Shown: piece by piece, positions 411-39,805 of the stretch
Layout of the letters: every line of letters starts with the position of its first letter
Numbering within the stretch: the first letter of the stretch is position 1
Source: an uncultured bacterium
GTDB taxonomy: Bacteria > Acidobacteriota > Thermoanaerobaculia > Multivoradales > JAHZIX01
Direction: 5' to 3'
Length of the DNA stretch: 64,000 bases
NCBI GenBank assembly: GCA_965368975.1
Contig: CBDUPA010000001.1
Coordinates: 544,001-608,000, forward strand
The notes under the pieces: model-generated
Told to the model about the DNA's origin: nothing
The model's input: only the letters and a program-made list of their open reading frames with translations
Databases searched by the model: none
Made by a program: the position numbers and the translations under genes

Positions 411-2975
411 TTGAGCGACCCGGACATGGAGCGGGTACGGTGGCAGCGGGTCGAAGCACTTCTGGACCAAGTCTTGGAACTGGATGCGGATGCCGCAGCT
501 GCTTTCCTCGACGCCGAGTGCCGAGACGACGATCGGCTGCGGGCCGAAGTCGAGGCGCTGTTGTCGGCCGATGCCGCCGCAGGTGACTTTCTGCGGCAGC
601 CAGCGGCCGAACGCCTGAGGGAAAGGTCGGCAGCTGATCTCGAACCGTTCTTGCCAGACGACCGGTCGATGAGCTGGGCTGAGGAGCTGTCCGGTCGCCA
701 GCTGGGCCCCTACGAGGTGCTCCGCCGCATCGGCGAGGGCGGAATGGGAGTCGTGTACGAAGCTCGGGATCCGCGCCTCGAACGCAGCGTTGCGCTGAAG
801 GTACTGCCGTTTCGCGGCGCCACCGGCGGCGACGAGCAGCGAGCCCGGTTCCTGCGCGAAGCCAGGGCCGCGTCGGCGCTGGATCACCCCAATATCTGTA
901 CGCTCTATGACGTCGGTGAGACGCCGGACGGGCAGCTCTACCTGGTCATGGCCTACTATGCCGGTGAGACCTTGGCGGAGCGCCTGCGACGCGGCCCGGT
1001 GCCGGTGGACGAAGCCCTGTCGATCGCCATCGAACTGGCGCGCGGGCTGCAAGCCGCCCACGTCGCGGGGATCGTTCACCGGGACGTCAAGCCCGCGAAC
1101 GTGATGTTGACCCGGGAGGGAAGCGTCAAGATCTTGGATTTTGGCGTCGCCCGGATTACCGACAGCCCCGTCCTCACGCGTACGGGGGCCGCGGTAGGCA
1201 CGCCCGCCTACATGGCTCCCGAGCAAGCGCGCGGCGAACCCGTGACACCGAAGGTGGACGTCTGGGCCTGGGGCCTCATCCTCTACGAGATGCTGACTGG
1301 CACGCAGCCATTTCGTACCGATTCGCACAGCAGTACGCTGCTGGCGATTCAGCAGACCGAACCGGTCCCCCTGGAGCGGCTGTGTCCGAAGGTGAATCGG
1401 GCTGTGACGCTGGTCGTACGGCGGGCTCTGGCCAAGAAGCCGAAACAGCGTTACCTCGGCCTGCGGGACGCGCTGGCGGATCTGGGCGTCGAGCCGACAC
1501 CCACCCCGGTGCAGCACGTGCCGGCGGTGCGGGGCCCTGCTTGGCTGGGCGCGTGGAAGCGAACCCGGTCTGTTCGGCAGGGGGCGCTGGTGGTCGTCCT
1601 CGGTCTCGGGGTCACTGTGCTGGCCTGGTATCTGTGGACCTCGGGCCGCTCGGGTACGCACACACCCTTGCCATCAGGAGACGGCGCCGCCGCGACGGTG
1701 CTGGTGGAGGGAGGTCCTGACGGCTCACAGATCGGTGTCGACGGCGTGACGGCGCGCGAGTGGGAGCGACGAGGCGCCGAGGCTCTGCAAGGGTTCTGGC
1801 GCGTGGGGCAGGTAGACGCGGCCGTTGAAGCCTACCAGCGAGCCGTGGTCCTGGCACCGGAGCGGGCAGCGGCCCATTCCGGGCTGGCCCGTGCGCTGTG
1901 GCGTCGCTACCGAGCGAGCCGTGATCGGGCCTGGTTACTGCAGGCGGAGGCCAATGCTCGTCGCGCCGTCGAGCTCGACGAGCACCTGGCCGCCGGCTGG
2001 GTCAGCCTCGGTCTGGTGCAGTCGGCCCAAGGGCAGCGCGAGGAAGCCGCCGATATCTTCGCGCGGGTAGTGCGGATCGATCCGGCGAACGCGGACGCGC
2101 ACCGGGGGCTGGCCGATCTGGCGCGGCAAGCCGGAGACATCGAGGCTGCGATCACCGGTTTCCAGCGCGCCGTGGCGCTGCGGCCCGAGGACATGGAACT
2201 GCACAGTCTCTTCGGTGGCCTGTACTACCGCGTCGCTCGCTATGAGGACGCCGAGGCCGAGTTCCGTCGGGCTCTAGACTTGGATCCGGACGAGAACAGC
2301 AGCTACAAGAACCTGGCAGCCGCGCTGCACATGCAAGGACGCTATCCGGAAGCCGCTCAGACGTTGCAACAGGCTCTGGCTCTGGAACCCGAGGAAGAGG
2401 TCTATACCAACCTGGGCACCCTCTATTACTTCCAGGGCCTCTACCCGCAAGCACTGTCGGCATTCGAGAAGGCCGCCGAACTGACGCCGGGAGACGCGCG
2501 CGTCTGGGGCAACCTGGGCGATGCACGCCGGCGCCTGCCGGGGCAAGAAGCTCTCGCCCGCGAAGCGTTTCGCACCGGGCTCGAGATTCTGGCGGAGGAG
2601 ATGAAGGCGGGACCGAAAGAGTCGGGGCAGGCGACTGCAGAGGCCCCCTCTCAGCTGGCCCCTTCCCAGCTGGCACTCGCCGCCGAGTACAGCGCCAAGG
2701 CCGGGGACGTCGACCGCGCTCGCCAGTGGTTGGATCGACTGGATGCGGCAGCGACGGATGGACTGGCGGTCGAGGTGCACAGCCTGTTCAACGCAGTGCA
2801 GGCAGCCGAGGTCCTGGGCGACCGACAGCGGGCCCTGGACTACTTGCGACGCACCCTGGAGGCCGGATATCCACGCCACGAGGTGGCGGCGGAACCCGAC
2901 CTGGCGGCCCTGCGCCAAGATGCCCGCTATCGAGTGTTGCTGGCGCAGCTGGCGCCTGAACGCAGCTCGCGATAG
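411..2975 (+). CDS. Membrane Ser/Thr protein kinase with C-terminal TPR repeats
   Basis: GEGGMG, VALK, HRDVKPAN, DFG and YMAPE motifs; one TM segment (LVVVLGLGVTVLAWYLW); TPR repeats; N-terminal 'W.RVEALLDQVLEL' segment typical of ECF-partner kinases; TTG start with CAGGAG RBS. Confidence 0.93.
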   Translation: MSDPDMERVRWQRVEALLDQVLELDADAAAAFLDAECRDDDRLRAEVEALLSADAAAGDFLRQPAAERLRERSAADLEPFLPDDRSMSWAEELSGRQLGPYEVLRRIGEGGMGVVYEARDPRLERSVALKVLPFRGATGGDEQRARFLREARAASALDHPNICTLYDVGETPDGQLYLVMAYYAGETLAERLRRGPVPVDEALSIAIELARGLQAAHVAGIVHRDVKPANVMLTREGSVKILDFGVARITDSPVLTRTGAAVGTPAYMAPEQARGEPVTPKVDVWAWGLILYEMLTGTQPFRTDSHSSTLLAIQQTEPVPLERLCPKVNRAVTLVVRRALAKKPKQRYLGLRDALADLGVEPTPTPVQHVPAVRGPAWLGAWKRTRSVRQGALVVVLGLGVTVLAWYLWTSGRSGTHTPLPSGDGAAATVLVEGGPDGSQIGVDGVTAREWERRGAEALQGFWRVGQVDAAVEAYQRAVVLAPERAAAHSGLARALWRRYRASRDRAWLLQAEANARRAVELDEHLAAGWVSLGLVQSAQGQREEAADIFARVVRIDPANADAHRGLADLARQAGDIEAAITGFQRAVALRPEDMELHSLFGGLYYRVARYEDAEAEFRRALDLDPDENSSYKNLAAALHMQGRYPEAAQTLQQALALEPEEEVYTNLGTLYYFQGLYPQALSAFEKAAELTPGDARVWGNLGDARRRLPGQEALAREAFRTGLEILAEEMKAGPKESGQATAEAPSQLAPSQLALAAEYSAKAGDVDRARQWLDRLDAAATDGLAVEVHSLFNAVQAAEVLGDRQRALDYLRRTLEAGYPRHEVAAEPDLAALRQDARYRVLLAQLAPERSSR

Positions 2976-3535
2976 AGGAAGGCCCGTGCCTTGCGCCAGT
3001 CGCGCTTGACGGTCGGTGCAGAGACGTCCAGAACCGCGGCTGTCTCCTCGACCGTCAAGCCGCCGAAGTAGCGCAACTCGACCAGGCGTCCGAGGCGCTC
3101 GCTCACCTGGCTGAGCGCTTGTAGGGCACGATCCAGGGCCAGTACCTCGACGGCGCCGTCGTCGCCGCTCGGGGCCGCGTCCGCCGCCATCCACGCCTCG
3201 TCCAGCGTCACCGGCCGCTCGTCACCGCCGCGCTTCTGCGCCGTCCGGGAACGGGCGTAGTTGATCAAGATGTGCCGCATCGCGGTCGCCGCGACGGCCA
3301 GGAAGTGCCCGCGGTCGTTGAAGCTGGCTCGTTTCTGGTCTATCAGCTTCAGGTACGCCTCGTGCACCAATGCCGTCGTTTCCAGGGTCTGCCCGGGGCG
3401 TCGGCGGCGCAACTGCCCGTGCGCCAGGCGTTTGAGCTCGTCGTACACCAGCGGCAGGAGACGCTCGTACGCTTCGGCGGGATCGCGCTTGCGTGCATCG
3501 AGCAGAATGTCGGTGATGTCGGCAGAACTGGACAT
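2927..3535 (-). CDS. ECF RNA polymerase sigma factor (TIGR02999/ECF43-like)
   Basis: LVYDELKRLA, TLETTALVHEAYLKL, VELRYFGGLTVEETA and TVKRDW motifs. Confidence 0.93.
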   Translation of the reverse strand: MSSSADITDILLDARKRDPAEAYERLLPLVYDELKRLAHGQLRRRRPGQTLETTALVHEAYLKLIDQKRASFNDRGHFLAVAATAMRHILINYARSRTAQKRGGDERPVTLDEAWMAADAAPSGDDGAVEVLALDRALQALSQVSERLGRLVELRYFGGLTVEETAAVLDVSAPTVKRDWRKARAFLYRELRSGASCASNTR

Positions 3536-14736: not shown

Positions 14737-15999
14737 ATGTCCACCGACTTCAAGAGCCGACAGACGCCCGGCGTCTACGTGACCGAACTCGACCCCTTCC
14801 CACCCTCCATGGTCGGCGTGCAGACCGCGGTCCCTGCCTTCGTTGGCTACACCGAAAAGGCGGAGGTCTCCGGCAAGCCCGTGAGGCTGAAGCCGGTCAA
14901 GTGTGGAGCGATGGTCGACTTCGACTTGATCTTCGGTGGTGCTCCGGCGAGCGGAGAGATCTTCCACCTCTACGACAGCCTGCGCCTCTTCTATGCCAAC
15001 GGTGGTGGCGAATGCTACGTGGTTTCCGTCGGTGACTACTCGGCTCCGGTGTCTCTGAAGCCCTTGCAGAAAGGACTGTCGGCGCTGGAGAACGAAGCTG
15101 AACCGACGATGTTGGTGATTCCTGATGCCGTCCTGCTGCCCGCTGACAGCAAGCCCATTGCCGGCACCTCACTGCCGAAGTCGCAAGCCTTCGCGACGCT
15201 GGTGCAGGCGATGCTGCAGCAGGCCGGGACGCTGCAGGATCGCGTCGCGATTCTCGACGTCTACGGCACGCTGTCCTTACCGGGTGCGAAGTCGGCGGAA
15301 TTCGACTCGAACCTGACGGCGCTGATCGAACAGTTCCGGCAGGATGTCGGGACCGAGTTCTTGAGCTACGGCGCGGCATACTTTCCGTTCTTGCAGACGT
15401 CGCTTGACGGCGTCGCGAATCCGTTGCCGCCGAGTCCCGCCCTGGCTGGCGTCTGCACACTCGTCGATACTTCGCGCGGCGTGTGGAACGCGCCGGCAAA
15501 TATCAGTCTGGGATCCGTTACGGCACCGACCGTTGTGATCAACGCCCAGCAACAGGCGGAGCTCAACACGCCGATCGACGGCAAGGCGGTGGATGCGATC
15601 CGCGAGTTCGTCGGCCGTGGCACGCTGGTGTGGGGGGCGCGGACCCTCGACGGCAACAGCAACGACTACCGCTACATTCAGGTGCGACGGACCCTGATCT
15701 ACATCGAGCAGAGCATCAAGGCAGCGCTCGGGCAGTTCGTCTTCGCAGCCAACGACGGCAAGACGTGGGCGACGGTGAAGTCCATGATCTCGAGCTTCCT
15801 GCACCAGCTCTGGGCGCAGGGCGGTTTGATGGGAGCGACGGCCTCGGAAGCATACTCGGTGGAAGTCGGACTGGGCAGTACGATGACGGCGCAGGACATC
15901 TTGGACGGCTACATGATCGTCCAGGTGACGCTGCAGATGATCCGCCCGGCGGAGTTCATTGAGCTGGTCTTCAAGCAGAAGATGGAGAGGAGCACCTGA
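14737..15999 (+). CDS. Contractile tail sheath protein (eCIS Afp2/3-like), orphan
   Basis: TPGVYVTE, TAVPAFVGYT, FYANGGGECYVVSVG, RGVWNAPAN, VWGARTL, YIQVRR and RPAEFI motifs. Confidence 0.92.
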   Translation: MSTDFKSRQTPGVYVTELDPFPPSMVGVQTAVPAFVGYTEKAEVSGKPVRLKPVKCGAMVDFDLIFGGAPASGEIFHLYDSLRLFYANGGGECYVVSVGDYSAPVSLKPLQKGLSALENEAEPTMLVIPDAVLLPADSKPIAGTSLPKSQAFATLVQAMLQQAGTLQDRVAILDVYGTLSLPGAKSAEFDSNLTALIEQFRQDVGTEFLSYGAAYFPFLQTSLDGVANPLPPSPALAGVCTLVDTSRGVWNAPANISLGSVTAPTVVINAQQQAELNTPIDGKAVDAIREFVGRGTLVWGARTLDGNSNDYRYIQVRRTLIYIEQSIKAALGQFVFAANDGKTWATVKSMISSFLHQLWAQGGLMGATASEAYSVEVGLGSTMTAQDILDGYMIVQVTLQMIRPAEFIELVFKQKMERST

Positions 16000-16090: not shown

Positions 16091-17179
16091 ATGCGACTCT
16101 CGAAATGCCCCGTTCTTCTCCTGGTGGTTGGCCTCTGGCTGGCGGTGACTCCGCTTCGGGCGATGCCGATCCCGCCCAACCCGCTCTGGACCTTGACACA
16201 GGATGCCGAACTGATCGTCGTTGCCGAAGTGACGGACCACGAGCCGTGGCGTGACGAGCGGGAGTCAGCGGATAGGTCGATGAGTAAGACGGTGGCGCTG
16301 CTCAGCATCCTCGATACGCTCAAGGGGCCGGAGTTGGAGACGGTTCGCGTGCCGTATCCGGCCGGCTTGGTCTGTCCGCAGCCGCCGCATTACTTCGACG
16401 GTGAGGTCGTCGTGGCCTTCCTGGAGCGCTACGACGACCGCTGGCACACGGTCTCGCTGTCCTTCGGCACGCTGTATCCGCAAGGGCCGGACCTCGATGA
16501 CGTGCTCACCATGACGCGCTGGGCGGTGCGGCTGCAGGCCGAGGCCGGTGCCGGGGGTGTGCTCCAAGAGCAGCGCATGCGCTGGTTGCTGGAAGCGGCG
16601 GCTCGGTCGGGGACGCGCTGGCATGCCTTGATGGAATTACAGCATCCAGAACTCTTGGTGGACAGGAGGCCGGGGGCGGCGGAGTACCGAGCGCCGGCAG
16701 CCTTGACCGACGAGGACTTCGCCGAACTCGCGCAGGCCTTGATCCGGGAGCCGAGACCGGATCACACGTTGCCGATGATGCTAGAGCTGCTGCGCGAGCA
16801 TCCGGAACCGGCCCTCGACGAGGTGGTGCTGGCGGTGACGGAGGGGATGTTGGCGCACGAGAAGCCGTCGTTTGTCCTGGAGTGGATGTTGTCGGAGGTC
16901 ATGAGGCGATTCGGCGAGCTCGAGCCCCGCGGGACCATCGAACGTTTCCAGGCTGCGCGCGAAGCGCAGGACGTGCCAGATTGGAGTGAGCGGATGCCGA
17001 CGATCGAGGAATGGCGGAGCTTCTGGATCGAGACGAAGCGGCGTTTGGGGATTCCGGACGTGGCGCCGGCCGAATTCGATCCGGAGCGCTACGAGTCTCT
17101 GGTACAGCGTCGGCATCGGGAAGAGCTAGCGGAGATCGAAGAGCTCTTGATTCGAGATATCGCCGAAGACGGCGGGTGA
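16091..17179 (+). CDS. Secreted hypothetical protein
   Basis: Signal peptide MRLSKCPVLLLVVGLWLAVTPLRA; N-terminal 'AELIVVAEV...CP.PPHY..GE.VVAFL' domain followed by a helical region. Confidence 0.7.
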   Translation: MRLSKCPVLLLVVGLWLAVTPLRAMPIPPNPLWTLTQDAELIVVAEVTDHEPWRDERESADRSMSKTVALLSILDTLKGPELETVRVPYPAGLVCPQPPHYFDGEVVVAFLERYDDRWHTVSLSFGTLYPQGPDLDDVLTMTRWAVRLQAEAGAGGVLQEQRMRWLLEAAARSGTRWHALMELQHPELLVDRRPGAAEYRAPAALTDEDFAELAQALIREPRPDHTLPMMLELLREHPEPALDEVVLAVTEGMLAHEKPSFVLEWMLSEVMRRFGELEPRGTIERFQAAREAQDVPDWSERMPTIEEWRSFWIETKRRLGIPDVAPAEFDPERYESLVQRRHREELAEIEELLIRDIAEDGG

Positions 17180-17299
17180 TCAATATTCGGCCGCGGCTGC
17201 GCGTGAGAGGGCAGAGACCCACGTGCCGTGAGCTGCTCCGGTAATTGCTAGAGCGGCCGTGGTACACCACCGGCTGCAGAGCCGAGAAGGAGAAATGCG

Positions 17300-17530
17300 A
17301 TGAAGAAGAAGTTGCAGAGGCGTTTTGGCTTGAAGCGGGAAACCCTACGCACGCTCACGGAGTCAGTCTCGAGTCGGGCCGTCGGCGGTACGATCGGAAC
17401 GACGAATGTAGTCGACTGGACAGAGAATCCGGGTGGCATCAGCTGCATCTATCCGGGTGGTTGCGGCACCGGCTACGAGACCATCACCGATCCGGGTTGC
17501 GGGGCATCCTGCGAGCTGGAACCCTGCTGA
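17300..17530 (+). CDS. lanA: RiPP (lanthipeptide-like) precursor peptide, 76 aa
   Basis: AAGGAG RBS; leader MKKKLQRRFGLKRETLRTL...AVGG; core with 5 Cys and 9 Ser/Thr; directly upstream of a LanC gene. Confidence 0.85.
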   Translation: MKKKLQRRFGLKRETLRTLTESVSSRAVGGTIGTTNVVDWTENPGGISCIYPGGCGTGYETITDPGCGASCELEPC

Positions 17531-17541
17531 GCAGGACTTCC

Positions 17542-17578
17542 CTGGCCGTCTGCACGAAGTCTTCGGGCAGACGGCCAG
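17542..17578 (+). promoter_or_regulatory. Stem-loop between precursor and cyclase gene (attenuator or mRNA stabiliser)
   Basis: CTGGCCGTCTGC ... GCAGACGGCCAG perfect 12-bp inverted repeat with no U tract. Confidence 0.6.
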
Positions 17579-17597
17579 ACTTGCCTGGAGCCTTTCG

Positions 17598-18878
17598 ATG
17601 ACAGCTACCTTGATGCGACCGCAGCACGCGACAGCCCAGGGCACTTTGCTCGACGGTGATCTCGCGGAAGCGGCAAGAGAGTCGGTCGATGCCATCATCG
17701 CAGATCTGCTCGAATTGCCGCCCGAGCGCTGCTATAGCCGGCTCCTGCAAGCTCATAGGCCTTCCCTGGGAGCTTTGGAGCCTTGGGCTGCTTTGCTCTT
17801 CGCCTACGCGGCGGAGGCCGGGGTGACGTCGGCCGAGCCGGATGCTCTGGAGATGCGTGCACTCTTGACGCTCGACGAAGCACAGCAGCAGCTCGCCGCG
17901 GAGCAGCGCCTCGATCTCTACGGTGGTTGGTGTGGAGTCGGTTGGGCCTTGGCGCATCTCACCGAGGCCGAGGGCGACGATTTGTTGCAGTTGGATGCTG
18001 CCGTCGAGACTTTTCTGCAGGCAGAACACGAGTTCTGGAAGCTGGACCTCATTGGGGGGCTCGTCGGCTACGGGATCTACCTTCTGGAGCGCTTGCCGCG
18101 GCCGGCAGCGGTACAGGGGCTACGCTCACTGGTCGAGCAGCTGGAGCGCTTGGCGGAGCACACCGACGATGGTCTGATTACCTGGTGGACCCGGCCGGAA
18201 GTCATGCATGAGCAGGAACGCGTCGCCGCCGGTGTCTACAACCTGGGCTTGGCTCACGGCATCCCGGGTGTCGTTGGCCTGCTGGCGCGCGTTCATCGCG
18301 CCGGAATCGCGCAGGGGCAGTGCTCGGCTCTGCTCGCAGGTTCCCTTCCCTGGCTCTTGCAGCAGCGACTTCCCACGGGGATAGCTTCCTGCTTTCCACG
18401 CCAGCTGACGGCCGGTGAGAAGCCCGAGCCGTCGCGCATTGCCTGGTGCTACGGAGAGCTCGGTGCCGCCACTGCGATGCTGGCTGCTGCGCGCGAACTC
18501 AGCGATGTGGCCCTAGAACAGCAGGTGATCGACCTCGCCCTGCACGCCGCTCGCATTACCGGGCCAGTAGCAGGCGTCGTCGACCCGGGGCTGTGCCATG
18601 GTGCGGCTGGTAATGGGCACATCTTCCATCGGCTGTACCGCGCTACTGGCGAAGATGCCCTACGGCGGGCTGCGGTGTTCTGGTTCGAGCAGACTTTGGG
18701 GTATCGCCGGCCCGGGACGGGAATCGGCGGTTTTCAGTCGTTCTATCCGGGACGTCCTGAGCGACCTTGGTACGACGATGCCAGCCTCGTCATGGGCTCC
18801 ACGGGAATCGGTCTGGCCCTGCTTGCAGCCTTGACGCCTGAAGAGCCGGCATGGGATCAACTGCTACTGCTTTCTTGA
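17598..18878 (+). CDS. lanC: LanC-like lanthionine cyclase
   Basis: GLAHGIPG, WCYG and GLCHG (Cys/Cys/His zinc ligands present); GxxG alpha/alpha-barrel repeats; ATG 17598 with GGAG RBS. Confidence 0.9.
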   Translation: MTATLMRPQHATAQGTLLDGDLAEAARESVDAIIADLLELPPERCYSRLLQAHRPSLGALEPWAALLFAYAAEAGVTSAEPDALEMRALLTLDEAQQQLAAEQRLDLYGGWCGVGWALAHLTEAEGDDLLQLDAAVETFLQAEHEFWKLDLIGGLVGYGIYLLERLPRPAAVQGLRSLVEQLERLAEHTDDGLITWWTRPEVMHEQERVAAGVYNLGLAHGIPGVVGLLARVHRAGIAQGQCSALLAGSLPWLLQQRLPTGIASCFPRQLTAGEKPEPSRIAWCYGELGAATAMLAAARELSDVALEQQVIDLALHAARITGPVAGVVDPGLCHGAAGNGHIFHRLYRATGEDALRRAAVFWFEQTLGYRRPGTGIGGFQSFYPGRPERPWYDDASLVMGSTGIGLALLAALTPEEPAWDQLLLLS

Positions 18879-19977
18879 GGCGTCCTGTCTGGGATGCTGG
18901 TCCGCAGCTCCGCGGCCTCCTCATTGCGCCCAAGTAGCCGCAAGCACTGGTCGAGGAGGTCGGCCGCCTCCGCTAGCCGTGGGTCGCCGCCTTCTCGAGT
19001 CCGGTAGTGTACTTCCAGGATCTCGCGCAGAAGCGGTTCCGCGGCCTCGGGCTCGCCAGCTGACAGCTTGTAGCGGCCGAGGCCGAGCACATAGCGAGCC
19101 CGGTCCGGGTTTTCCGGCGGCAGTAGCTCGCGTGCCAGGTCCACGGCACGCTCATGCAGCGGTGCAGCCTGACCGTGGATGCCTCGGGCTTCCAGCAACC
19201 GTGCCAAGTTGTGCAGGCTGTTCGCGACAGCCGGGTGCTCACCCAGGCGCCTTTGGCGCAGGTCCAGAGCCTGCCGGTAGAGCACTTCTGCTTTGTCGAG
19301 GTTGTCCTTGTGCGTGTAGGCCTCGGCAAGACGATCCAGCGTGTTGGCGAGTCTCGGGTGATCTTCGCCCTGCACGCGCCGCCGTCGTTCCAGGTTTTGC
19401 TCGTGCAGGACGATGGCTTGATCGAACTTTCCTTGCTGGACCAGCATGGTGGCCAGATTGTGTGTGTTGGTGATGATCTGCGGGTGATCCTCGCCCAAGA
19501 AGCGGCGATTGATCTCCAGGGCTCGGCGGACGTAGTGCTCCGCCTCGGCGTACTTGGCCTGGTAATAGTAGACATTGCTCAGGTTGTTCAAGATCGTCGC
19601 CAGGTCCGGGTGCTCGTCTCCAAGCGCCGTGCCCCAGCGCTCGATGATCGGGACACGCGCTTGCCCTTTCCCCGCTTGGCTGCCAGATGCTTGCGTGCGT
19701 GATCCAGTAGCAACCGGCGCATGATCTGGGCGGCGATACCGAAGAAGTGCGCACGGTTCTGCCAGCGCACACTGTCCTGGCCGATCAGGCGAAAGTAGGC
19801 CTCGTGAACCAGATCGGTCGTCTGCAGTGTATGGTCGCTGCGTTCTCGACGTAGGTAGCTGGCCGCCAATGATCGCAGTTCGTCGTAGACGATTGGCCAC
19901 AGCTGGGCGAGAGCTGCTTCGTCGCCCTCGGACCAGGCAACCAGCATCTGAGTGACAGGTACGGGTAGGGTGCTCAT
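18857..19977 (-). pseudogene. Collapsed ECF sigma / TPR-kinase pair: sigma region 2 joined out of frame to a TPR tail
   Basis: 19977-~19652 encodes the ECF43-like N-half ([13 protein letters not shown]...AAKRG) without region 4. ~19650-18857, in the -1 frame, encodes LGDEHP/LGEDHP TPRs without kinase or TM. Confidence 0.75.
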
Positions 19978-26451: not shown

Positions 26452-26709
26452 ATGTCTATCAGAAGATTCCGAGACGTCAGCGAGATGGAGGGCAATACCT
26501 GGAAAGAACCGGGTAGCCCAGAGCTCATGCGTGCCATCCGTTCGACTTGGGACTTCGCGCAGCGCACGCTACAGCCGAAGTTCCCGCCGGGCGTCTACAA
26601 GTACCGCTCGATCGAAGAGATGAAAGCGCAGCGCGAGCGCTGGGCGCAGGCGAACTTCGAGGCGTACCAGGAGCGGTTACGGCAGAAGCGGGTCGAAGGC
26701 GCTAAGTAG
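26452..26709 (+). CDS. Small hypothetical protein with duplicated (V/I)x(K/R)(F/Y)RxxxE motif; paralog of 35638-35925
   Basis: IRRFRDVSEM ... FPPGVYKYRSIEEM...RERW. Confidence 0.75.
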   Translation: MSIRRFRDVSEMEGNTWKEPGSPELMRAIRSTWDFAQRTLQPKFPPGVYKYRSIEEMKAQRERWAQANFEAYQERLRQKRVEGAK

Positions 26710-30808: not shown

Positions 30809-33454
<2,646 letters not shown>

Positions 33455-33480
33455 ACGGAGAAGAGCGTCCGTGAAGGTCG

Positions 33481-33511
33481 AGAGCCCGGCGTCCAGGGGA
33501 TGCCGGGCTCT
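33481..33511 (+). terminator. Hairpin downstream of clpB
   Basis: AGAGCCCGGCGTC...GATGCCGGGCTCT inverted repeat; weak U tract. Confidence 0.6.
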
Positions 33512-33873
33512 GTGACCCTGGGGATAAAGATCCGCTCACAAAGCTGAGAGTTCGGGAAATCCTCATGAACTACGGGTTGAAGGTCTTATTATATTGACAT
33601 TAAATAGAATTTTATTTATAGATATAGTGATATTGGGTTTATTGAGCTGGTATTATGAGTCAGACCCGCGTCCTCAACCGGGGGCGGCAAGAGCTAGAGC
33701 CCTGGATGTTTTGTAGAGGAGAAACGAAGGTTTGTTAGACAGAAGCCACATTTTCCGCCACAATTCATGCGGAAACAACGACTCATGAATACGGACTTTA
33801 GCGCGAAGTGCCAGAGGGGGGATATTGCGATGCTCAGTGAAGCGCAGCGCGTTAGGTGCCCCGCATCAATCCA

Positions 33874-35190
33874 ATGGCACAGCTAAGCTTCGTCGAACGT
33901 AGAAAGCTTGAGACGCTCTTCGAAATGGGCGGCGGGTACGTTCTCGACTTCTCAAACCGCACTCTTCAGGAATTTGTTGCGGACAGTGTTGGAGTCGAGA
34001 TTTACGACGAGCGATACAATTATGATTCCGGATCGAAGGCGAACCGGCTACGCGGGTTCTGGAAGATCGAATCCGATGCGAACGTTGCCAAACTCATCCG
34101 GGATTTGGTGGACTACGCGGAATTCCTAAACAAGAACACCGATGCGGACCTTGTTTCCGCATGTAGGGCCATAGCTGATCGGCTCGTTGCCAGGTCGAAC
34201 ACGAGCGATTCTGAGAATTCCGCTATGTCCCGTCCGATTCGCGTTTTCATTGCGTACAGCCATGATTCGCCCGAACACGTTCGCCAAGTACTAGCACTCT
34301 CGGACTCCCTGCGGCGGGACGGAATCGACGCCGACCTCGACCAATATCACTTATCGCCGACCGATGGATGGCCCGCGTGGGTCAGTAACCAACTCGCAAC
34401 TGCTGACTTCGTGATCATCGTCTGCACCAAGGTGTTCTTGCGACGTTTTCGCGGCGAAGATAAAGCCAGTATTGGACTTGGGGTTGAATATGAAGGCGCT
34501 CTCCTTCAGGAAACGAACTTCAATGACTCGTCCTTATTTGAAGTCGGTCGCAAGACAACAAGGTACCTGCCGGTTGTGTTTTCGAACACCGATTCAGCCT
34601 ACATTCCCCCGCAGTTTCGCGCGCTTACCTTCTACAACCTAACTGGGCCTGAAGGGTACGGTTTCCTATACCGGCGGCTTACCAATCAACCAAAGCTCGC
34701 CGCTTCCCCTATCGGTGAACTCTTCAAGCCGCCACCAAGAGCTACCGAAGATAAGCTCAACGGGCTACGCACGTTCCTCTGCCATTCGTCAAAGGACAAG
34801 CCAGCGGTCCGCGATCTCTACAAGAAGCTACTGACGCACAACGTAAGACCTTGGCTAGATGAAGAGGATCTATTGGCGGGGCAAATATGGCGCGAAGAGA
34901 TACCCAAGGCTATCCGTGGCTCGCATGCGGTAGTGGTTTGCTTATCAGCCAATGCCGTGAGCAAGGCCGGCTACTTTCACAAAGAGGTGAAATTCGCGCT
35001 TGACGTTCTGGACGAACAACCTGAAGGTACAGTTTTTGTCGTTCCGGTTCGTCTGGCAGAATGCGATATACCTGAACGCCTTGGGCATATTCACTGTGCA
35101 AACCTTTACGACCACAATGGATTCGAGAAATTGCTTCTCGCACTACAATCGCGCGCAAAGCAAGTCGCGGCTAACAACAAAGACATCTAG
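33874..35190 (+). CDS. Putative defence protein: abortive-infection-type N-terminal domain + SEFIR + TIR
   Basis: GGGYVLDFSNRT...GSKANRLRGFW; VFIAYSHDSPEH...LDQY...GWPAW...GVEYE (SEFIR); FLCHSSKDK...PWLDEEDLLAG...GYFHKEV (TIR); atypical codon usage. Confidence 0.85.
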   Translation: MAQLSFVERRKLETLFEMGGGYVLDFSNRTLQEFVADSVGVEIYDERYNYDSGSKANRLRGFWKIESDANVAKLIRDLVDYAEFLNKNTDADLVSACRAIADRLVARSNTSDSENSAMSRPIRVFIAYSHDSPEHVRQVLALSDSLRRDGIDADLDQYHLSPTDGWPAWVSNQLATADFVIIVCTKVFLRRFRGEDKASIGLGVEYEGALLQETNFNDSSLFEVGRKTTRYLPVVFSNTDSAYIPPQFRALTFYNLTGPEGYGFLYRRLTNQPKLAASPIGELFKPPPRATEDKLNGLRTFLCHSSKDKPAVRDLYKKLLTHNVRPWLDEEDLLAGQIWREEIPKAIRGSHAVVVCLSANAVSKAGYFHKEVKFALDVLDEQPEGTVFVVPVRLAECDIPERLGHIHCANLYDHNGFEKLLLALQSRAKQVAANNKDI

Positions 35191-35274
35191 CAATTGCGTG
35201 AGCCGGAGCAGTGAATCCGGCGGAATCTGAAAATAACGCGTAACGTCGCCGCCCGGTTACGCTGGTTGTTAGGC
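35185..35274 (+). mobile_element. attC recombination site
   Basis: R'' ATCTAGC (contains the stop codon; one mismatch to RYYYAAC); L'' GCGTGAGCCGG pairs with L' CCGGTTACGC leaving an extra G; R' GTTAGGC; 90 bp. Confidence 0.7.
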
Positions 35275-35297
35275 ATCGCTCCGCCAGCGCAGGCGGT

Positions 35298-35570
35298 ATG
35301 ATCGACCACGCGCTCGACCGGCTGACCGACGACCTCCGCAGCTTGAGGCTGTGGTCGAGTGGTGCGTTCGACGAGGTGCGACATCTGTCCTACGGCGACG
35401 TCAAGAACAACGGTGTGTACTACCATCCGCGAGCACGCCTCCTCTATTCCGACCTGTCCGGGAGGGAGCTGCGTCATGAGCCGGCTCGGGCGAGCCGCTC
35501 GCTGAACTCGCAGATGTTGTCACTATGGACGAGGTCAGAACTCTATCCACCGCAGGGTCTTAAGAGTTAG
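35298..35570 (+). pseudogene. Probable truncated cassette ORF
   Basis: ATG 24 nt after the attC; the ORF reads through an attC-right-half-like segment (GCTCGCTGAACTCGCAGATGTTGTC) with no left half. Confidence 0.4.
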
Positions 35571-35637
35571 CGCTAGCATTGAAGAGGTCTCAGTTTGGGA
35601 ATCTCGTCTGACGGCGGGGGACATCCTTGGTGCGAGA

Positions 35638-35925
35638 CTACCGCTCGCTCTTCGGCCTCTGAATCACCCGCATCGTCCCCTGCTCCTCTCGCTCCCGCTG
35701 CAACTTCTGCACGTGCTCCGTCAGCCACCGATCCCGCTCTGCCTGAGCTTCTTCGAGCGTCCGATACTTCCGGACTCCCTTCGGATAGCTGCGTGGATTC
35801 AAGAGCGCACTCCGTCGCCACAATTGACGAACCCGCTCGAGGTACGCGTCGTCTGGCTCATCGCACCACATGTCGCGGTCGGCGGCGTTCATTTCTTCGA
35901 GCGTTCGGAACTTTTGTACTGGCAT
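35638..35925 (-). CDS. Small hypothetical protein with duplicated VxK(F/Y)RTLEE motif; paralog of 26452-26709
   Basis: MPVQKFRTLEEM ... YPKGVRKYRTLEEAQAERDRW. Confidence 0.75.
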   Translation of the reverse strand: MPVQKFRTLEEMNAADRDMWCDEPDDAYLERVRQLWRRSALLNPRSYPKGVRKYRTLEEAQAERDRWLTEHVQKLQREREEQGTMRVIQRPKSER

Positions 35926-36065
35926 TGGAGCGGAGCCTCAATCCTCAAAGAAGAACCGTTGTAGAAGGCGTGAAGAGCTGCCTCGAGCGCCCATGACTAT
36001 CGAACGATGTTATCTCGCTTGGCGCCACGACGTCTGAGCGGCTCGGCTGTGCGCCCAGAAAATGC

Positions 36066-36096
36066 AAAAGCCCGGCATCTTCGAGATGCCGGGCTT
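36066..36096 (-). terminator. Intrinsic terminator after the small precursor gene
   Basis: AAGCCCGGCATCT-cga-AGATGCCGGGCTT 13-bp stem ending in TTTT, then GCATTTT, on the minus strand. Confidence 0.8.
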
Positions 36097-36117
36097 GACC
36101 GAAGGAGGTACTAGCCT

Positions 36118-36291
36118 TCAGCAGGCGAAGCAGGATCCGCCGATGTCGCAGGTCTGCTGGGAGTTGCAGGGATAGCACGTGAACGTGCAAACGACGGTGC
36201 AGACCTCGGTAGCAGCGCCCTTGGCTTGTTGCGTGGAAGATTCGCTGAGCACGGAGAGTGTTTCGCGGCTGAGGCGTAGCTTCTTCTTCAT
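36118..36291 (-). CDS. lanA: Second lanthipeptide-like precursor (57 aa, below the ORF-track cutoff)
   Basis: MKKKLRLSRETLSVLSESSTQQAKGAATEVCTVVCTFTCYPCNSQQTCDIGGSCFAC*; AAGGAGG RBS; own terminator; TTGACT-N18-TACCCT upstream (36382-36353). Confidence 0.85.
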   Translation of the reverse strand: MKKKLRLSRETLSVLSESSTQQAKGAATEVCTVVCTFTCYPCNSQQTCDIGGSCFAC

Positions 36292-36505
36292 AGGTATGAC
36301 CTCCTTGAAGATTTCTCAGAACCTGCTTAGGTTCAATGAATAATGTGTTCTTAGGGTAGTGTGCTTGGTAGGTCGAAGTCAATGCCCTGGTGGCGCTTGC
36401 TCGGTGGTCCGTGCCGGAATTGTCCGGTAGACGATCTGGTTGTTGAGCAAAACGACTGTCTCTCACGCGGAGCCCGACGCTATCCGCAACTACCGGAGGC
36501 CCCTG

Positions 36506-39500
36506 ATGCGAAACCGTGTTCGTCCCCTCGTTCTGCCGACCTTCGGCCTGTTGTTGCTGACTCTGACTTCGGCGGCGCACGCCCAGGAGCCGCTCTTCAC
36601 GTCGCAGGTGCGCAGTGCCCAAGGCGACGGATGGCGTGTGATGGTGAACGTGGACGGGCTCTTGACGGCACCGGAGTTGCTCACGTTCGAGTTACCTACG
36701 GGAGAGACGGTGTGGGCGCGTCAGGACCACTTCGAGGTCGACGGTTCGTTCGTCGACGACGAAGGCGACGTCCGAGAGACGTTTCGCTGGTGGGGCAAGA
36801 CGGACGATGGCGAAGACGTCCTGCTCAACGGCGTTGGGAACCAGGTGGCGGGAACGGTGATGCTGCAGTCAGGGATGTATCGGCTGCAGCCTACAGGCAG
36901 TCGTCAGCACCGCTGGTTCCGCGCAGCTGACCCGGAGGCGGGCTGCGGGACCGATCAGGATGTGGTGCAACGAGTCCGTTCGGTCCTCGAATCACGAGTG
37001 GCCGCTGAGGCCACGGCCTCGGCGGTGGTCACCGGACAGGACACGGGCACCGAGGATGTCGCGGCCGGCAAGGCGGGGCCGACAGTCGACGTGGTCATGG
37101 TCTACAGTCCTTCGGCCCGCGCGCGCGTCGGTGGGGATGCGGCGATGCTGGCGGAGATCCGCAGTGATATCGATTACACGAATCGGGCGCTGGGCAACAG
37201 CTTGATCGACGCGAGCGTTCGCCTCTTGCAGGTAGAGCAGGTGAACTATCAGGCGGACGCGGGCAGTGATGCCGGGCTCAACTGGTTGATCACCAACGGT
37301 GACGGCATTCGCCGCGCCTGGGGAGCAGATATCGTTGGGATCATCCACCACGTGACCGACTATTGCGGCATCGCTGCGTATCGGGGTATCCGCGGCAATG
37401 CCGACGGTGGCTTTTTCCTGACCGCCTCGAACTGTCTCGGCCGGGGCACGACGGCGCACGAGTTGGGGCATTTATGGGGTGCCGATCACGATCCTGAGAA
37501 CGCGGGCATCGCGCATGGCACGCAGTCGTTCGCCACCTATCCCGATGCCTATGGCAACTTCTATGACGGCATCTACCGCACGATCATGTCGTACAGCCGT
37601 CCGTGTGACCTGGGATGCCCCAAGGCACCGTACTTCTCCAATCCTGCGGTTTCGTATCTCGGTCGGCCGACGGGCACGAGCCAGCGCGCCAACCATCGCG
37701 TCATCCGCGACTACAGCCCGACAGTTTCGCGCTATTTCACGTCCAAGGCCGGGCCGCCGGCAGGGCCCACGGATCTGACCGCGGAAGTGGTGGAGACGGC
37801 GAGTGGCTTCGAGGTGATGCTGACCTGGACCGATCGCGCCAGCAAGGAGGGGCACTACGAACTCTACCGGGCGACGGACGGCGGCGCGCTGCCACGTTTG
37901 ACCCGGCTGAGCAAGAATAGCGAGCGTTATGTCGACCGGGCGGTCGAAGGGCGGCGAACCTACAGATACCAGGTGGAAGCGGTAAACCTGCAGGGCAGCA
38001 GCCGCTCGGAAGAGGTCGAGGTCGAGGTGGTGGCACTGGCGGCCCAGTTGGAGGTGCAAGCCAACCTGCTACGGGCCGGTGAGCCGGTGGTCTTTGACCT
38101 GCGGGTCGAAGGGAGTGGCCGGCGGGCACTGTGGTCCTTCACGCCGATTCTCGGCACACAAGCGACGGATGGGCTTGCGGTCACGGATGCCGCGAGTGGT
38201 TGGGGAGCGGTCCACGTGTTCGACACGCCCGGTGTGTATGAGGTCAGGGTGAAGGTGCAGGGCGGCCACGGACAGGAGGTCGCTGCGAACCTGACGCTCG
38301 ACGTACGTGGCGCGACGCCAGTCTGGACGCGCACGGCGTCGCGGTTGCAGAGCGTGATCCATGGTCCGCGCGGCGGCGGTGGCGTCTTCGAAAGCCAGCT
38401 GTGGCTGCACAATGCGGGCGCCGCGCCCGCGCTGGTCGACCTGGCGTTCCTGGCGCGCGGCCAGGACAACCGCACGGCGCGTCGGCGTGCGTTGACCTTG
38501 TTGCCGGGGCGGACGCTGCACTTGCCGGATGTGGTGTCGACGCTAGACGCCGAGGGCGCCGGGGCGCTGAGCGTCGAGGCGCGAGCCAATGCGGATCTGC
38601 ACAGCGCTGCGCCACGCGTGCTGGCCTTCGGTCGGTCGTTCGTCGAGCGTCCCCAGGGCCCGAACGGTGCGAGCTTCGGCCAGCGGGTGGGGGAAGAGCC
38701 GGCGGAGCTGTGGAGCGACGCCACGCGCTGGATCGTCGGGCTCTACGATGGTCCCGAGGTCGACGACGTGACCGAAGCTGACGACGGAGCCGAGACGGGC
38801 TGGCAGGCGACGTTGCACGGTGTCAACCTGGAGGATCGTCCCGGCCGCCTGACGCTGGAGCTGACGGACGCGCTGGGTCGTGCCGTCGGTGAGCCGGCAG
38901 AGCTGGGCTTGCCGCCGCAGGGCATGCGCTTCCAGCGGCTGATTCAGCTGTTCCCCGAGGTGCGTGCCTTCCAGCCACCGTTCACCGCGCGGGTGACATC
39001 CAATGGCATCCGCTTCCTGGCGTCCGGGACGCTGCTCGAGAGCGGCTCGGAGGATCAGGCGTTCTTACCAGGACAGGGTGAGCTGGTGGGGCCGGCGAGT
39101 GTCCAGACACGCCTGCTGATTCCGCGTGTCGTCGAGGGACCGGGGCAGTTTGGTGTCACGCTGAGTACGAGGCTGCTGCTGCACAATCCGGCTGACGTCG
39201 CGCGTACGCTAACGCTGGAGCTACTCGAACGGGGGCAGGACAACTCGCAGCCCAAGACTGCGACCGTGACGGTGCCGGCGGGACAGACGCGGGAGATCCG
39301 AGCGGTGTTGCCGTCGCTCTTCGACATCGACAGCGGTGCTGGTGCGCTGGCTCTCAGCTGGCAAGGGGAGGGACCTGCTCCGCAGGCGGCCGCGTTGGTC
39401 TTCGCGCGCGCTGAGGCGGGGGAGCGTTTCGCCACGCGCGTCGAGGCGCGCCCACCTACTGCAGCGGCGACCGAGCGGTCGATCGACTTCGGTGCCGAGC

Positions 39501-39805
39501 AGTCGTCGCGTTTCACGTCTGCCTACGGTGTGCTCAGCCTGTTCGAGCGCACGACGCGGCTGGAGCTGATCCTGCGCGACGGCCAGGGCGTCGAGCTGGC
39601 ACGGCGGACACAGAACTTGCGGCCACATCAGCATCTGGAGCGGAGTCTGCTCGGGCTCTTCGAGGACGCGGCTGGTCAGCTCCAAGGCGTCCAGGATCTG
39701 GCTGTCGAGACGCGCGTGCTGGCAGGTGGGCCAGTGCTCACGTACCTGATCAATGTCAACGTCTCGGGTGACGTCTTCTACGTGCCGGGGCGTGGGTGGC
39801 GCTAG
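36506..39805 (+). CDS. Secreted reprolysin-like (M12) zinc metalloprotease with FN3, PKD-like and C-terminal repeats
   Basis: Signal peptide; AHELGHLWGADHD; Met-turn RTIMSY; YFSNP; FN3 (LTWTDRAS.E..Y); two 'GP.G.....L.LHN' repeats; GGAGG RBS. Confidence 0.88.
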   Translation: MRNRVRPLVLPTFGLLLLTLTSAAHAQEPLFTSQVRSAQGDGWRVMVNVDGLLTAPELLTFELPTGETVWARQDHFEVDGSFVDDEGDVRETFRWWGKTDDGEDVLLNGVGNQVAGTVMLQSGMYRLQPTGSRQHRWFRAADPEAGCGTDQDVVQRVRSVLESRVAAEATASAVVTGQDTGTEDVAAGKAGPTVDVVMVYSPSARARVGGDAAMLAEIRSDIDYTNRALGNSLIDASVRLLQVEQVNYQADAGSDAGLNWLITNGDGIRRAWGADIVGIIHHVTDYCGIAAYRGIRGNADGGFFLTASNCLGRGTTAHELGHLWGADHDPENAGIAHGTQSFATYPDAYGNFYDGIYRTIMSYSRPCDLGCPKAPYFSNPAVSYLGRPTGTSQRANHRVIRDYSPTVSRYFTSKAGPPAGPTDLTAEVVETASGFEVMLTWTDRASKEGHYELYRATDGGALPRLTRLSKNSERYVDRAVEGRRTYRYQVEAVNLQGSSRSEEVEVEVVALAAQLEVQANLLRAGEPVVFDLRVEGSGRRALWSFTPILGTQATDGLAVTDAASGWGAVHVFDTPGVYEVRVKVQGGHGQEVAANLTLDVRGATPVWTRTASRLQSVIHGPRGGGGVFESQLWLHNAGAAPALVDLAFLARGQDNRTARRRALTLLPGRTLHLPDVVSTLDAEGAGALSVEARANADLHSAAPRVLAFGRSFVERPQGPNGASFGQRVGEEPAELWSDATRWIVGLYDGPEVDDVTEADDGAETGWQATLHGVNLEDRPGRLTLELTDALGRAVGEPAELGLPPQGMRFQRLIQLFPEVRAFQPPFTARVTSNGIRFLASGTLLESGSEDQAFLPGQGELVGPASVQTRLLIPRVVEGPGQFGVTLSTRLLLHNPADVARTLTLELLERGQDNSQPKTATVTVPAGQTREIRAVLPSLFDIDSGAGALALSWQGEGPAPQAAALVFARAEAGERFATRVEARPPTAAATERSIDFGAEQSSRFTSAYGVLSLFERTTRLELILRDGQGVELARRTQNLRPHQHLERSLLGLFEDAAGQLQGVQDLAVETRVLAGGPVLTYLINVNVSGDVFYVPGRGWR

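Follow-up and report, generated by a model that had tools for sequence, protein, structure and literature searches.

Introduction

Two kinds of anti-phage protein are close to the gene described here. In excerpts of two preprints, a bacterial SEFIR protein protects Bacillus subtilis against phi29 (bioRxiv 10.1101/2022.05.11.491447), and SEFIR depletes nicotinamide adenine dinucleotide (NAD+) via its SEFIR domain (bioRxiv 10.1101/2024.02.11.579819). AbiJ, in the excerpted text of a comparative study, is an Abi_C (HEPN) domain that carries one of five interchangeable N-terminal heads, AbiJ-NTD1 to 5 (Anantharaman et al., 2013, PMC3710099). Here, we analyze a gene, P0001 (33874..35190, forward strand; 438 amino acids), in which a head, a SEFIR domain and a TIR domain follow each other in a single polypeptide. 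P0001 lies in a 64-kb stretch of DNA (the window) from an uncultured bacterium of the Acidobacteriota (contig CBDUPA010000001.1, positions 544,001 to 608,000).

A first-pass annotation of the window had proposed that this gene is a candidate anti-phage system carried as an integron cassette. We consider it reasonably probable that P0001 is a single-polypeptide, NAD+-depleting abortive-infection defence protein, mosaic in make-up and borne on a small islet, and not a cassette.

Results and discussion

A SEFIR and a TIR domain in tandem behind an N-terminal head

The open reading frame (ORF) of P0001 begins with an ATG at 33874 and ends with a TAG stop at 35188-35190. Because its aligned relatives begin with MAQL or MAKL, we assigned the start to this ATG and not to the upstream GTG at 33856. 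The proposed order of N-terminal domain (NTD), SEFIR and TIR was borne out by Pfam, by PADLOC, by an AlphaFold2 model and by Foldseek. The SEFIR domain spans residues 121-270 (34234..34683, forward strand), within which Pfam SEFIR matched residues 123-256 at 8.4e-15 (55.8 bits, cut-off 23). The TIR_2 domain spans residues 297-432 (34762..35169, forward strand), and Pfam TIR_2 matched residues 301-421 at 2e-34 (119 bits, cut-off 28). P0001 also matched the SEFIR half of the PADLOC bSEFIR model, and that half only, at 3.7e-40 (profile positions 16-195 of 412). Weaker PADLOC matches of the TIR part were to the models for TIR-bearing Argonaute, SAVED-TIR, retron-TIR and ThsB, and an NCBIfam scan of P0001 gave no match above cut-off.

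Comparisons at the level of profiles and structures agreed with these assignments. A profile of 29 aligned relatives (alignment A1) matched the Bacillus cereus SEFIR crystal structure 5y8e with an E-value of 6.4e-35, and also human Act1 (2.6e-15) and the TIR domains of AbTir, BtTir and TLR proteins (1e-6 to 1e-4). The AlphaFold2 model of P0001 had a mean predicted local distance difference test score (pLDDT) of 80. In Foldseek searches with this model, the SEFIR part retrieved 5y8e and IL-17R/Act1, and the TIR part retrieved MyD88 together with the NADases SPARTA, AbTir and SARM1. The predicted template modelling score (pTM) was 0.43, hence the arrangement of the domains relative to each other is uncertain in this model.

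The three motifs named in the first-pass annotation are all present, YVLDFS at residue 22, GVEYE at 203-207 and FHKEV at 368-372. Glu207 (codon 34492-34494), the last residue of GVEYE, is nearly invariant across the 29 sequences of A1, and is matched in the alignment by the Glu of GVGTE of bacterial SEFIR 5y8e; human Act1 has no Glu there. Act1 is a non-enzymatic adaptor. In the TIR domain, the residue aligned with Glu371 (codon 34984-34986) in the plant TIR 3jrn and in TLR2/15 is the Glu of helix C. The pair K370-E371 is kept in 16 of the 16 TIR-bearing rows of A1, the Lys being invariant. As judged by alignment, P0001 keeps a Glu at the conserved position of both TIR-fold domains, as the first reading of the motifs had suggested, and it has both hallmarks of the TIR NADases, the TIR fold and the helix-C Glu.

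The head recurs in front of many toxic effectors

The N-terminal helical domain, or head, comprises residues 1-115 (33874..34218, forward strand). Residues 1-119 belong to no Pfam family; a search at E ≤ 10 gave one chance-level match only. When residues 1-120 were scanned against 1.84 billion representatives, clustered at 50% identity, 1854 clusters matched at E ≤ 1e-3 and 907 at 1e-10. Among the 150 matches listed, the head lay almost always at the extreme N-terminus of proteins of 90-660 residues. We scanned 85 of these 150, hand-picked among the longer ones, with Pfam. The head itself had no Pfam match in any of the 85 proteins. It was followed by TIR_2 in 19 (two of which also have SEFIR), by Abi_C in another 19, by CAP12-PCTIR_TIR, Mrr_cat, Pkinase or EAD1/5/7 in three each, by CHAT or, weakly, DUF4145 in two each, and by DpnII-MboI, Deaminase, Shedu SduA_C or Hypoth_Ymh in one each; the remaining 27 had no Pfam partner. 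In IMG/VR, 17 viral contigs encode the head, and all 17 of these proteins are fusions (13 to Abi_C, three to Mrr_cat and one to Ymh).

The recurrence of the head N-terminal to Abi_C and other such domains, in the library and on viral contigs alike, means that its earlier attribution to AbiJ-like abortive-infection proteins holds. In head-Abi_C proteins, the PADLOC AbiJ model matches the HEPN half alone and leaves the head uncovered. In the excerpts of the comparative study, the partners given for NTD1 (AbiJ, DUF4145, Ymh, kinase, restriction endonuclease and deoxyribosyltransferase) fit those of our head, and NTD2 agrees with the head in size and in having TIR and Mrr partners (PMC3710099). 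The Pfam families AbiJ_NTD3, 4 and 5 were also considered as identities of the head, and were ruled out by the Pfam scans of the head and of the 85 relatives. The head is therefore best described as an AbiJ-associated N-terminal domain, a label that appears right in substance; a choice between NTD1 and NTD2 would have only the identity of the partners and the secondary structure to go by.

AlphaFold2 modelled the head, together with 130 relatives, as five helices with a pLDDT of 95 and a pTM of 0.86. Foldseek found no convincing solved relative of this model (best E-value 0.7). VIA-align gave a best Z of 6.2 and a Z of 5.3 for a CARD domain, both within the noise expected of helical bundles, and the ESM Atlas returned sub-threshold leads only (best score 0.86; AbiJ_NTD5 at rank 25 with 0.83). 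A predicted complex of two copies of the head obtained a score of 0.00 and a mark of 0.42. The partners of the head (HEPN, TIR, restriction endonuclease, kinase, CHAT) would nearly all be enzymes that are usually activated by dimerization or clustering. Since such partners are activated by proximity, a clustering or sensing role of the head is favoured over that of a tailor-made inhibitor.

P0001 is a mosaic of two protein families

The homologue search for P0001 scored 8000 candidates, 1431 of them at E ≤ 1e-3, and the best 120 were listed. The only full-length relative among these 120 is P0002, which is 89% identical and comes from a 1.9-kb contig; the three-domain form is rare (two of the 120 listed proteins, the query included). 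Two families share parts of P0001. Family A (P0003-P0018, L015 and L095) consists of SEFIR-TIR proteins of about 295-345 amino acids, with the same domain order and linker as the body of P0001. Unlike P0001, they lack its head, and two members, P0008 and P0012, carry a different head of ~95 amino acids. Family B (P0028-P0083) consists of head-SEFIR proteins of about 290 amino acids, one example of which is annotated 'TIR domain-containing protein' in Planctomycetes. Its members have the same head and the same NTD-linker-SEFIR order, but no C-terminal TIR domain.

The head of P0001 is 62-75% identical to that of family B. By contrast, its SEFIR domain is only 27-32% identical to family B and 41-60% identical to family A, and its TIR domain is 49-74% identical to family A. 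Because the head is closest to family B, and SEFIR and TIR are closest to family A, these identities show P0001 to be a mosaic, a B-type head grafted onto an A-type body. The two tandem TIR-fold domains that had drawn attention to this gene are present, yet they are not special to it, since SEFIR-TIR is a recurrent two-domain family. We found no name for these two-domain proteins in the literature searched. There are further head-X-TIR proteins; P0148, for instance, has a head 51% and a TIR domain 46% identical to those of P0001, around a different middle.

Genomic loci gave a similar picture of rarity. Among 84 loci examined (79 from a set with one genome per species and five from relatives), SEFIR-TIR was found at two (L015 and L095) and the head at none, and most of the others encode an N-terminal SEFIR followed by a long C-terminal region of 200-1770 residues. 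A search for full P0001 in 41 genomes (40 relatives and its own) found it in none but its own; the best match elsewhere was 49% identical over residues 122-431. The neighbours of L015 and L095 are unrelated, TPR and ADH genes at one and an Mrr nuclease gene at the other. The latter, at L095 (G030:C5), encodes a 292-amino-acid Mrr_cat nuclease (2467-3345, forward strand, 4.8e-26) after the SEFIR-TIR gene, matches the PADLOC PDC-S02 and type IV restriction endonuclease models, and is the one neighbour of a family A gene in which we saw a likeness to defence genes.

We also noted at least three further SEFIR domains in the genome that carries P0001 (G000), each N-terminal in a long ORF of 753-929 amino acids. 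Their coordinates are C1:359484-360008, C2:343750-344259 and C12:231909-232427; a further one, C13:153535-154025, is short or broken.

Comparison with bSEFIR, AbiJ and Thoeris, and the probable function of P0001

Among described systems, bSEFIR (Bacillus sp. NIO-1130; Millman et al., 2022; PADLOC PDLC03957) has a homologous SEFIR domain with the Glu, and, similar to P0001, is encoded by a single gene; by analogy, NAD+ depletion would be the expected output of P0001. The two proteins differ in layout. bSEFIR begins with its SEFIR domain and continues into a family-specific C-terminal half of ~215 residues (positions 196-412), whereas in P0001 the SEFIR domain is central, starting at ~121 behind the 115-residue head, TIR_2 comes after it, and the family C-terminal half is absent. 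The methods excerpt of the preprint gives a SEFIR at the N-terminus as the selection rule for bSEFIR (bioRxiv 10.1101/2022.05.11.491447). On the SEFIR stretch of P0001, SEFIR scores better than TIR by Pfam, by PADLOC and by the 5y8e profile, in line with another bSEFIR criterion. Nevertheless, since its SEFIR domain is not N-terminal and the C-terminal half is absent, P0001 is not a strict member of bSEFIR. With the AbiJ family P0001 shares the head, common to many Abi_C proteins, and the same logic of a head plus a toxic enzyme. It differs in having no HEPN domain (no Pfam match to Abi_C at E ≤ 1), hence it is not an AbiJ.

In the reading that we favour, the head would most likely sense a phage cue or hold the enzyme off, as hypothesized in 2013 in the excerpted comparative study (PMC3710099). 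On activation, the SEFIR and TIR domains would assemble into oligomers, and NAD+ would be hydrolyzed to ADP-ribose and nicotinamide, whereupon the infected cell would be arrested; both steps are modelled on what we drew from the literature on bSEFIR and TIR defence. The strength of the bSEFIR match supports the earlier suggestion that P0001 is a candidate single-gene defence system.

TIR domains can also make signalling nucleotides. P0001 might then be a signal producer similar to Thoeris ThsB, in which one or both domains make a messenger of the cyclic ADP-ribose type that activates a distant effector, and NAD+ depletion is not the output. The TIR part does have weak PADLOC matches to ThsB (4.5e-4 to 0.019) and an NCBIfam match to a Thoeris type III protein (0.076), the latter below any cut-off. 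The ThsB matches are, however, far weaker than the bSEFIR match. PADLOC and Pfam found no ThsA-like, SLOG, Macro or SIR2 partner among the 21 neighbouring ORFs of the window, so that a ThsA-type effector adjoining P0001, as in Thoeris, is absent among the neighbours scanned, and the two-domain genes L015 and L095 stand among unrelated genes. We therefore give a signalling role little credence.

Several points weigh against P0001 being an NAD+-depleting defence protein on an acquired islet. No recognizable defence island surrounds the gene: on the same 21 neighbouring ORFs, PADLOC returned only generic kinase, AAA and TPR matches, and the flanking genes are clpB and a metallopeptidase gene. SEFIR and TIR domains can be pure interaction scaffolds. 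In the literature searched, we found no experiment on any SEFIR-TIR or head-SEFIR protein. P0001 departs from bSEFIR on two of its criteria, the N-terminal SEFIR and the family C-terminal half. The Glu assignments in P0001, the SEFIR active site included, are based on alignment, and the role proposed for the head is a hypothesis from the 2013 comparative paper, applied here by analogy. The boundaries of the islet (see below) depend on short, low-depth contigs of one study, and the key joint on one contig of one run. As to bSEFIR itself, the mutant reported in the preprint excerpts is D40A, an interface mutant, and these excerpts contain no mutant of an active-site Glu (bioRxiv 10.1101/2022.05.11.491447).

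The missing defence island would also suit a gene that does not serve in defence at all, whether as a non-catalytic adaptor or scaffold, as a toxin that stabilizes the islet by addiction, or as a host factor in cell death or kin recognition. At least three more large proteins with a SEFIR domain are encoded in the genome, and the role first proposed for bacterial SEFIR was that of an interaction domain of general use (Yang et al., 2018, as cited in the excerpts of bioRxiv 10.1101/2022.05.11.491447). Set against this are the retention of both conserved Glu residues, the near-restriction of the head to viral contigs and to proteins with a toxic effector enzyme, and the score of the SEFIR domain against a model built from a validated defence family. 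On balance, we regard a role outside defence as unlikely.

In a variant of the defence reading, SEFIR and TIR would be a heterotypic pair that contributes jointly to a composite active site, whether in the same chain or between chains, and the head would serve as a transferable switch, for phage sensing or for clustering, able to turn on any proximity-activated effector. We consider this conjoint arrangement distinctly improbable. NAD+ depletion by a single polypeptide remains the function that we favour for P0001.

P0001 was probably acquired in a small islet downstream of clpB

The gene has a GC content of 0.526, and 0.58 at third codon positions (GC3), compared with 0.658 and 0.87 for the neighbouring clpB (30809-33454) and with a GC content of 0.65 for the genome, as might be expected from the low GC content that had been pointed out previously. 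The whole window has a GC content of 65%, with a dip to about 0.50-0.55 that extends from clpB to a gene for a reprolysin-like peptidase (36440-39805). Since its GC and GC3 are far below those of clpB, P0001 is foreign to this genome; it is an intact gene acquired by horizontal transfer. The housekeeping genes of the window are proS, a dnaJ-type gene and clpB, in the company of many Ser/Thr kinase genes.

The likely acquired unit is a low-GC islet (GC 0.54) at 33507..35925, delimited by composition and by metagenome contigs. On its left lies a hairpin after clpB (33481..33511, forward strand), an inverted repeat that we take as the left boundary repeat (I2). A second copy of this hairpin (36068..36096, reverse strand), found by an inverted-repeat and pattern search, is the intrinsic terminator of a peptide gene at 36118-36291. 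The pattern GCCCGGC[AG]TC..GA[TC]GCCGGGC occurs at only these two hairpin sites in the 7.1-Mb genome. Their local alignment scored 30, compared with a mean of 20.4 (standard deviation 2.2, maximum 30) for shuffled sequences. The DNA between the two hairpins is present in a single copy in the genome.

Metagenome comparison was made with two sludge runs of one study (X2 and X3), using short contigs with 85% likeness or better. Contigs of both runs carry a relative of 33581-35925 at about 90-96% identity, and homology to the islet ends at 35925 in both. On the other side, contigs from clpB end at 33506. One X3 contig joins 35925 to 33462-33498, just after clpB, with 37 nt on the latter side and one mismatch. 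Word depth was 9-16 on the clpB side versus 3-5.5 in the islet. A third run, X1, contained small identical pieces only (34980-35235 and 36396-36600). These contigs fit a unit of ~2.4 kb bounded by the clpB-terminator repeat, or a circular form, in part of the population. Collectively, composition and contigs indicate that P0001 arrived by horizontal transfer in a low-GC islet of ~2.4 kb at the clpB terminator hairpin.

The islet encodes no recombinase. We found no Rfam match in 33300-36600 and, with ARAGORN, no tRNA in the window. Searches of related genomes for synteny found no neighbour gene of the window within ~1.4 kb 3' of clpB (nine relatives) or up to ~12 kb (four relatives), so related genomes offered no empty site by which to delimit the islet. 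A sigma-70-like promoter sequence, by consensus match only, lies in an AT-rich stretch 5' of P0001 (33627..33656, forward strand).

The second gene of the islet (35638..35925, reverse strand), convergent with P0001, encodes a conserved hypothetical protein of 95 amino acids. A cluster search at E ≤ 1e-3 gave 66 clusters for its family, which has no Pfam model, and the gene is present in 34 of the 151 genomes of the order (a count that includes the unpublished genome G144). Within about 1.5 kb of its relatives, no head, SEFIR or TIR was found at any of 14 loci (including L155 of G144), hence the 95-amino-acid gene is not a conserved partner of P0001. The protein has an internal repeat (KFRTLEE and KYRTLEEA), and a weak paralogue is encoded at 26452-26676 of the window.

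Some further features of the surroundings are recorded here. The peptide gene at 36118-36291 (reverse strand), which has the intrinsic terminator mentioned above to itself, encodes a Cys-rich peptide of 57 amino acids whose C-terminal half is CTVVCTFTCYPCNSQQTCDIGGSCFAC. Weak paralogues of its leader occur at four further genomic sites, and the peptide looks like the precursor of a ribosomally synthesized and post-translationally modified peptide. The window also contains a LanC-like gene (17433-18878). Near it and near genes for TPR proteins, the ORF at 14737-15999 (forward strand) encodes the C-terminal domain of a phage tail sheath (PF17482, 3.4e-11); it may be part of a prophage remnant or of a contractile injection system.

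The integron-like motifs around P0001 do not amount to a cassette

The proposal of an integron cassette relied on two motifs. The first, GTTAGGT, was confirmed at 33851..33857 (forward strand), 17 nt before the ATG, with no upstream R'' partner. The second is an attC-like inverted repeat that overlaps the stop codon (35169..35274, forward strand; 106 nt), found in a scan for R''/R' pairs (GTTRRRY with a partner ending in AAC, at most one mismatch, 55-145 nt). Its arms are GGCTAAC (R'', 35169-35175) and GTTAGGC (R', 35268-35274), with one mismatch, and its inner stem, GCGTGAGCCGG/CCGGTTACGC, has a bulged G; 20 nt separate this stem from R'' and 5 nt from R'. The locus does resemble a cassette in being a compact single ORF, in having GTTRRRY on either side and in the imperfect palindrome over its stop.

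The repeat is present, but several measures place it at the level of chance, and it is not a canonical attC. The same scan found 330 R''/R' pairs in the 7.13-Mb genome, compared with 150 per 3 Mb, or about 356 when scaled, in a first-order Markov simulation; two pairs fell in the 64-kb window. GTTAGGY occurs three times in the window versus 5.6 expected. At canonical spacing, the L-box score of the repeat is 4 of 7, whereas 37 of the 330 R pairs of the genome reach 6, and the bottom strand of the repeat folds no better than shuffled sequences (z 0.47). As a positive control, the scan was run on three class 1 arrays, allowing up to two mismatches. All five attC sites that it caught had L-box scores of 6 or 7 of 7 and spacers of 4-6 nt. 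It caught five of nine expected sites, so its sensitivity is limited, and the scan for R pairs and L-boxes is cruder than the covariance model of IntegronFinder.

The wider genome provided no integron either. We found no integron integrase (IntI) in this 99.3%-complete genome, in which the best match to TIGR02249 is a Xer-like recombinase (108 bits, cut-off 265); similar sub-cut-off Xer-like matches were obtained in 14 of 14 control genomes. The R-pair scan found no attC arrays above chance anywhere in the genome, and no other copy of a sequence like 35169-35274. The islet contains a single R pair and no other GTTRRRY with a partner, hence the GTTAGGT before P0001 does not close an earlier attC site. 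At the two SEFIR-TIR loci in other genomes, no R pair was seen at the gene end. Single metagenome contigs span 33851 (records 5 and 15) and 35274 (records 9 and 17), and these relatives are collinear across both supposed cassette ends. Taken together, the absence of IntI and of a second attC, the non-canonical R-L geometry and this collinearity speak against carriage of P0001 as an integron cassette.

One might still suppose that the gene was once captured as a cassette, with boundaries at 33851 (G/TTAGGT) and 35268 (G/TTAGGC), and now stands alone with a degenerate attC after insertion at a secondary site or decay of an array. GTTAGGY on both sides of the ORF, an R''/R' pair with a 10-bp stem (one mismatch) that overlaps the stop codon, the bulged G of the inner stem, and the mere two such pairs in the window would be in keeping with such a history. 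So would the frequency of IntI in the order, where it exceeds the curated cut-off in 48 of 151 genomes, including two of five in the same family. However, the evidence from IntI, from R pairs and arrays, from the L-box score and the 20-nt and 5-nt spacers, from the other SEFIR-TIR loci and from metagenome collinearity argues against an orphan cassette no less than against an active one, and we think this history quite unlikely. Transfer in the islet at the clpB terminator hairpin is the route that we favour.

At four IntI loci of relatives, and in one cyanobacterial plasmid, no canonical attC arrays were found on the expected side of IntI, only odd tandem repeats. One relative's IntI is 57% identical to IntI1. 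The repeats beside the IntI genes at L124 (19035-19652), L125 (19202-19621) and L123 (2669-2856) are of about 103 nt or 20-80 nt, and the IntI gene of genome G096 adjoins TATATATA-rich repeats of 83 nt and an ECF-sigma-like ORF. The IntI of the cyanobacterial plasmid (NZ_CP083584.1, L126) is 64.5% identical to that of the relatives. About 1.3 kb from it is a gene for a 1049-amino-acid TIR-domain protein (16232-19381, reverse strand), with a methyltransferase and an AAA ATPase gene on the other side.

Implications

For the calling of cassettes, this locus is a caution: GTTRRRY motifs flanking a foreign gene are insufficient. P0001 combines AbiJ-type and bSEFIR-type parts with a TIR domain in a new architecture. 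SEFIR and TIR are the two TIR-fold domains common to bacterial and animal immunity, and a natural SEFIR-TIR fusion in which each domain has a Glu is a clean system for asking if such domains act alone, in parallel or together. A composite active site, if true, would be the first case of two TIR-fold classes that cooperate in one polypeptide, and a nucleotide product that neither domain makes alone might then arise instead of simple loss of NAD+. Lastly, the head fronts at least ten kinds of toxic effector, and knowledge of its cue would explain how many abortive-infection proteins are triggered.

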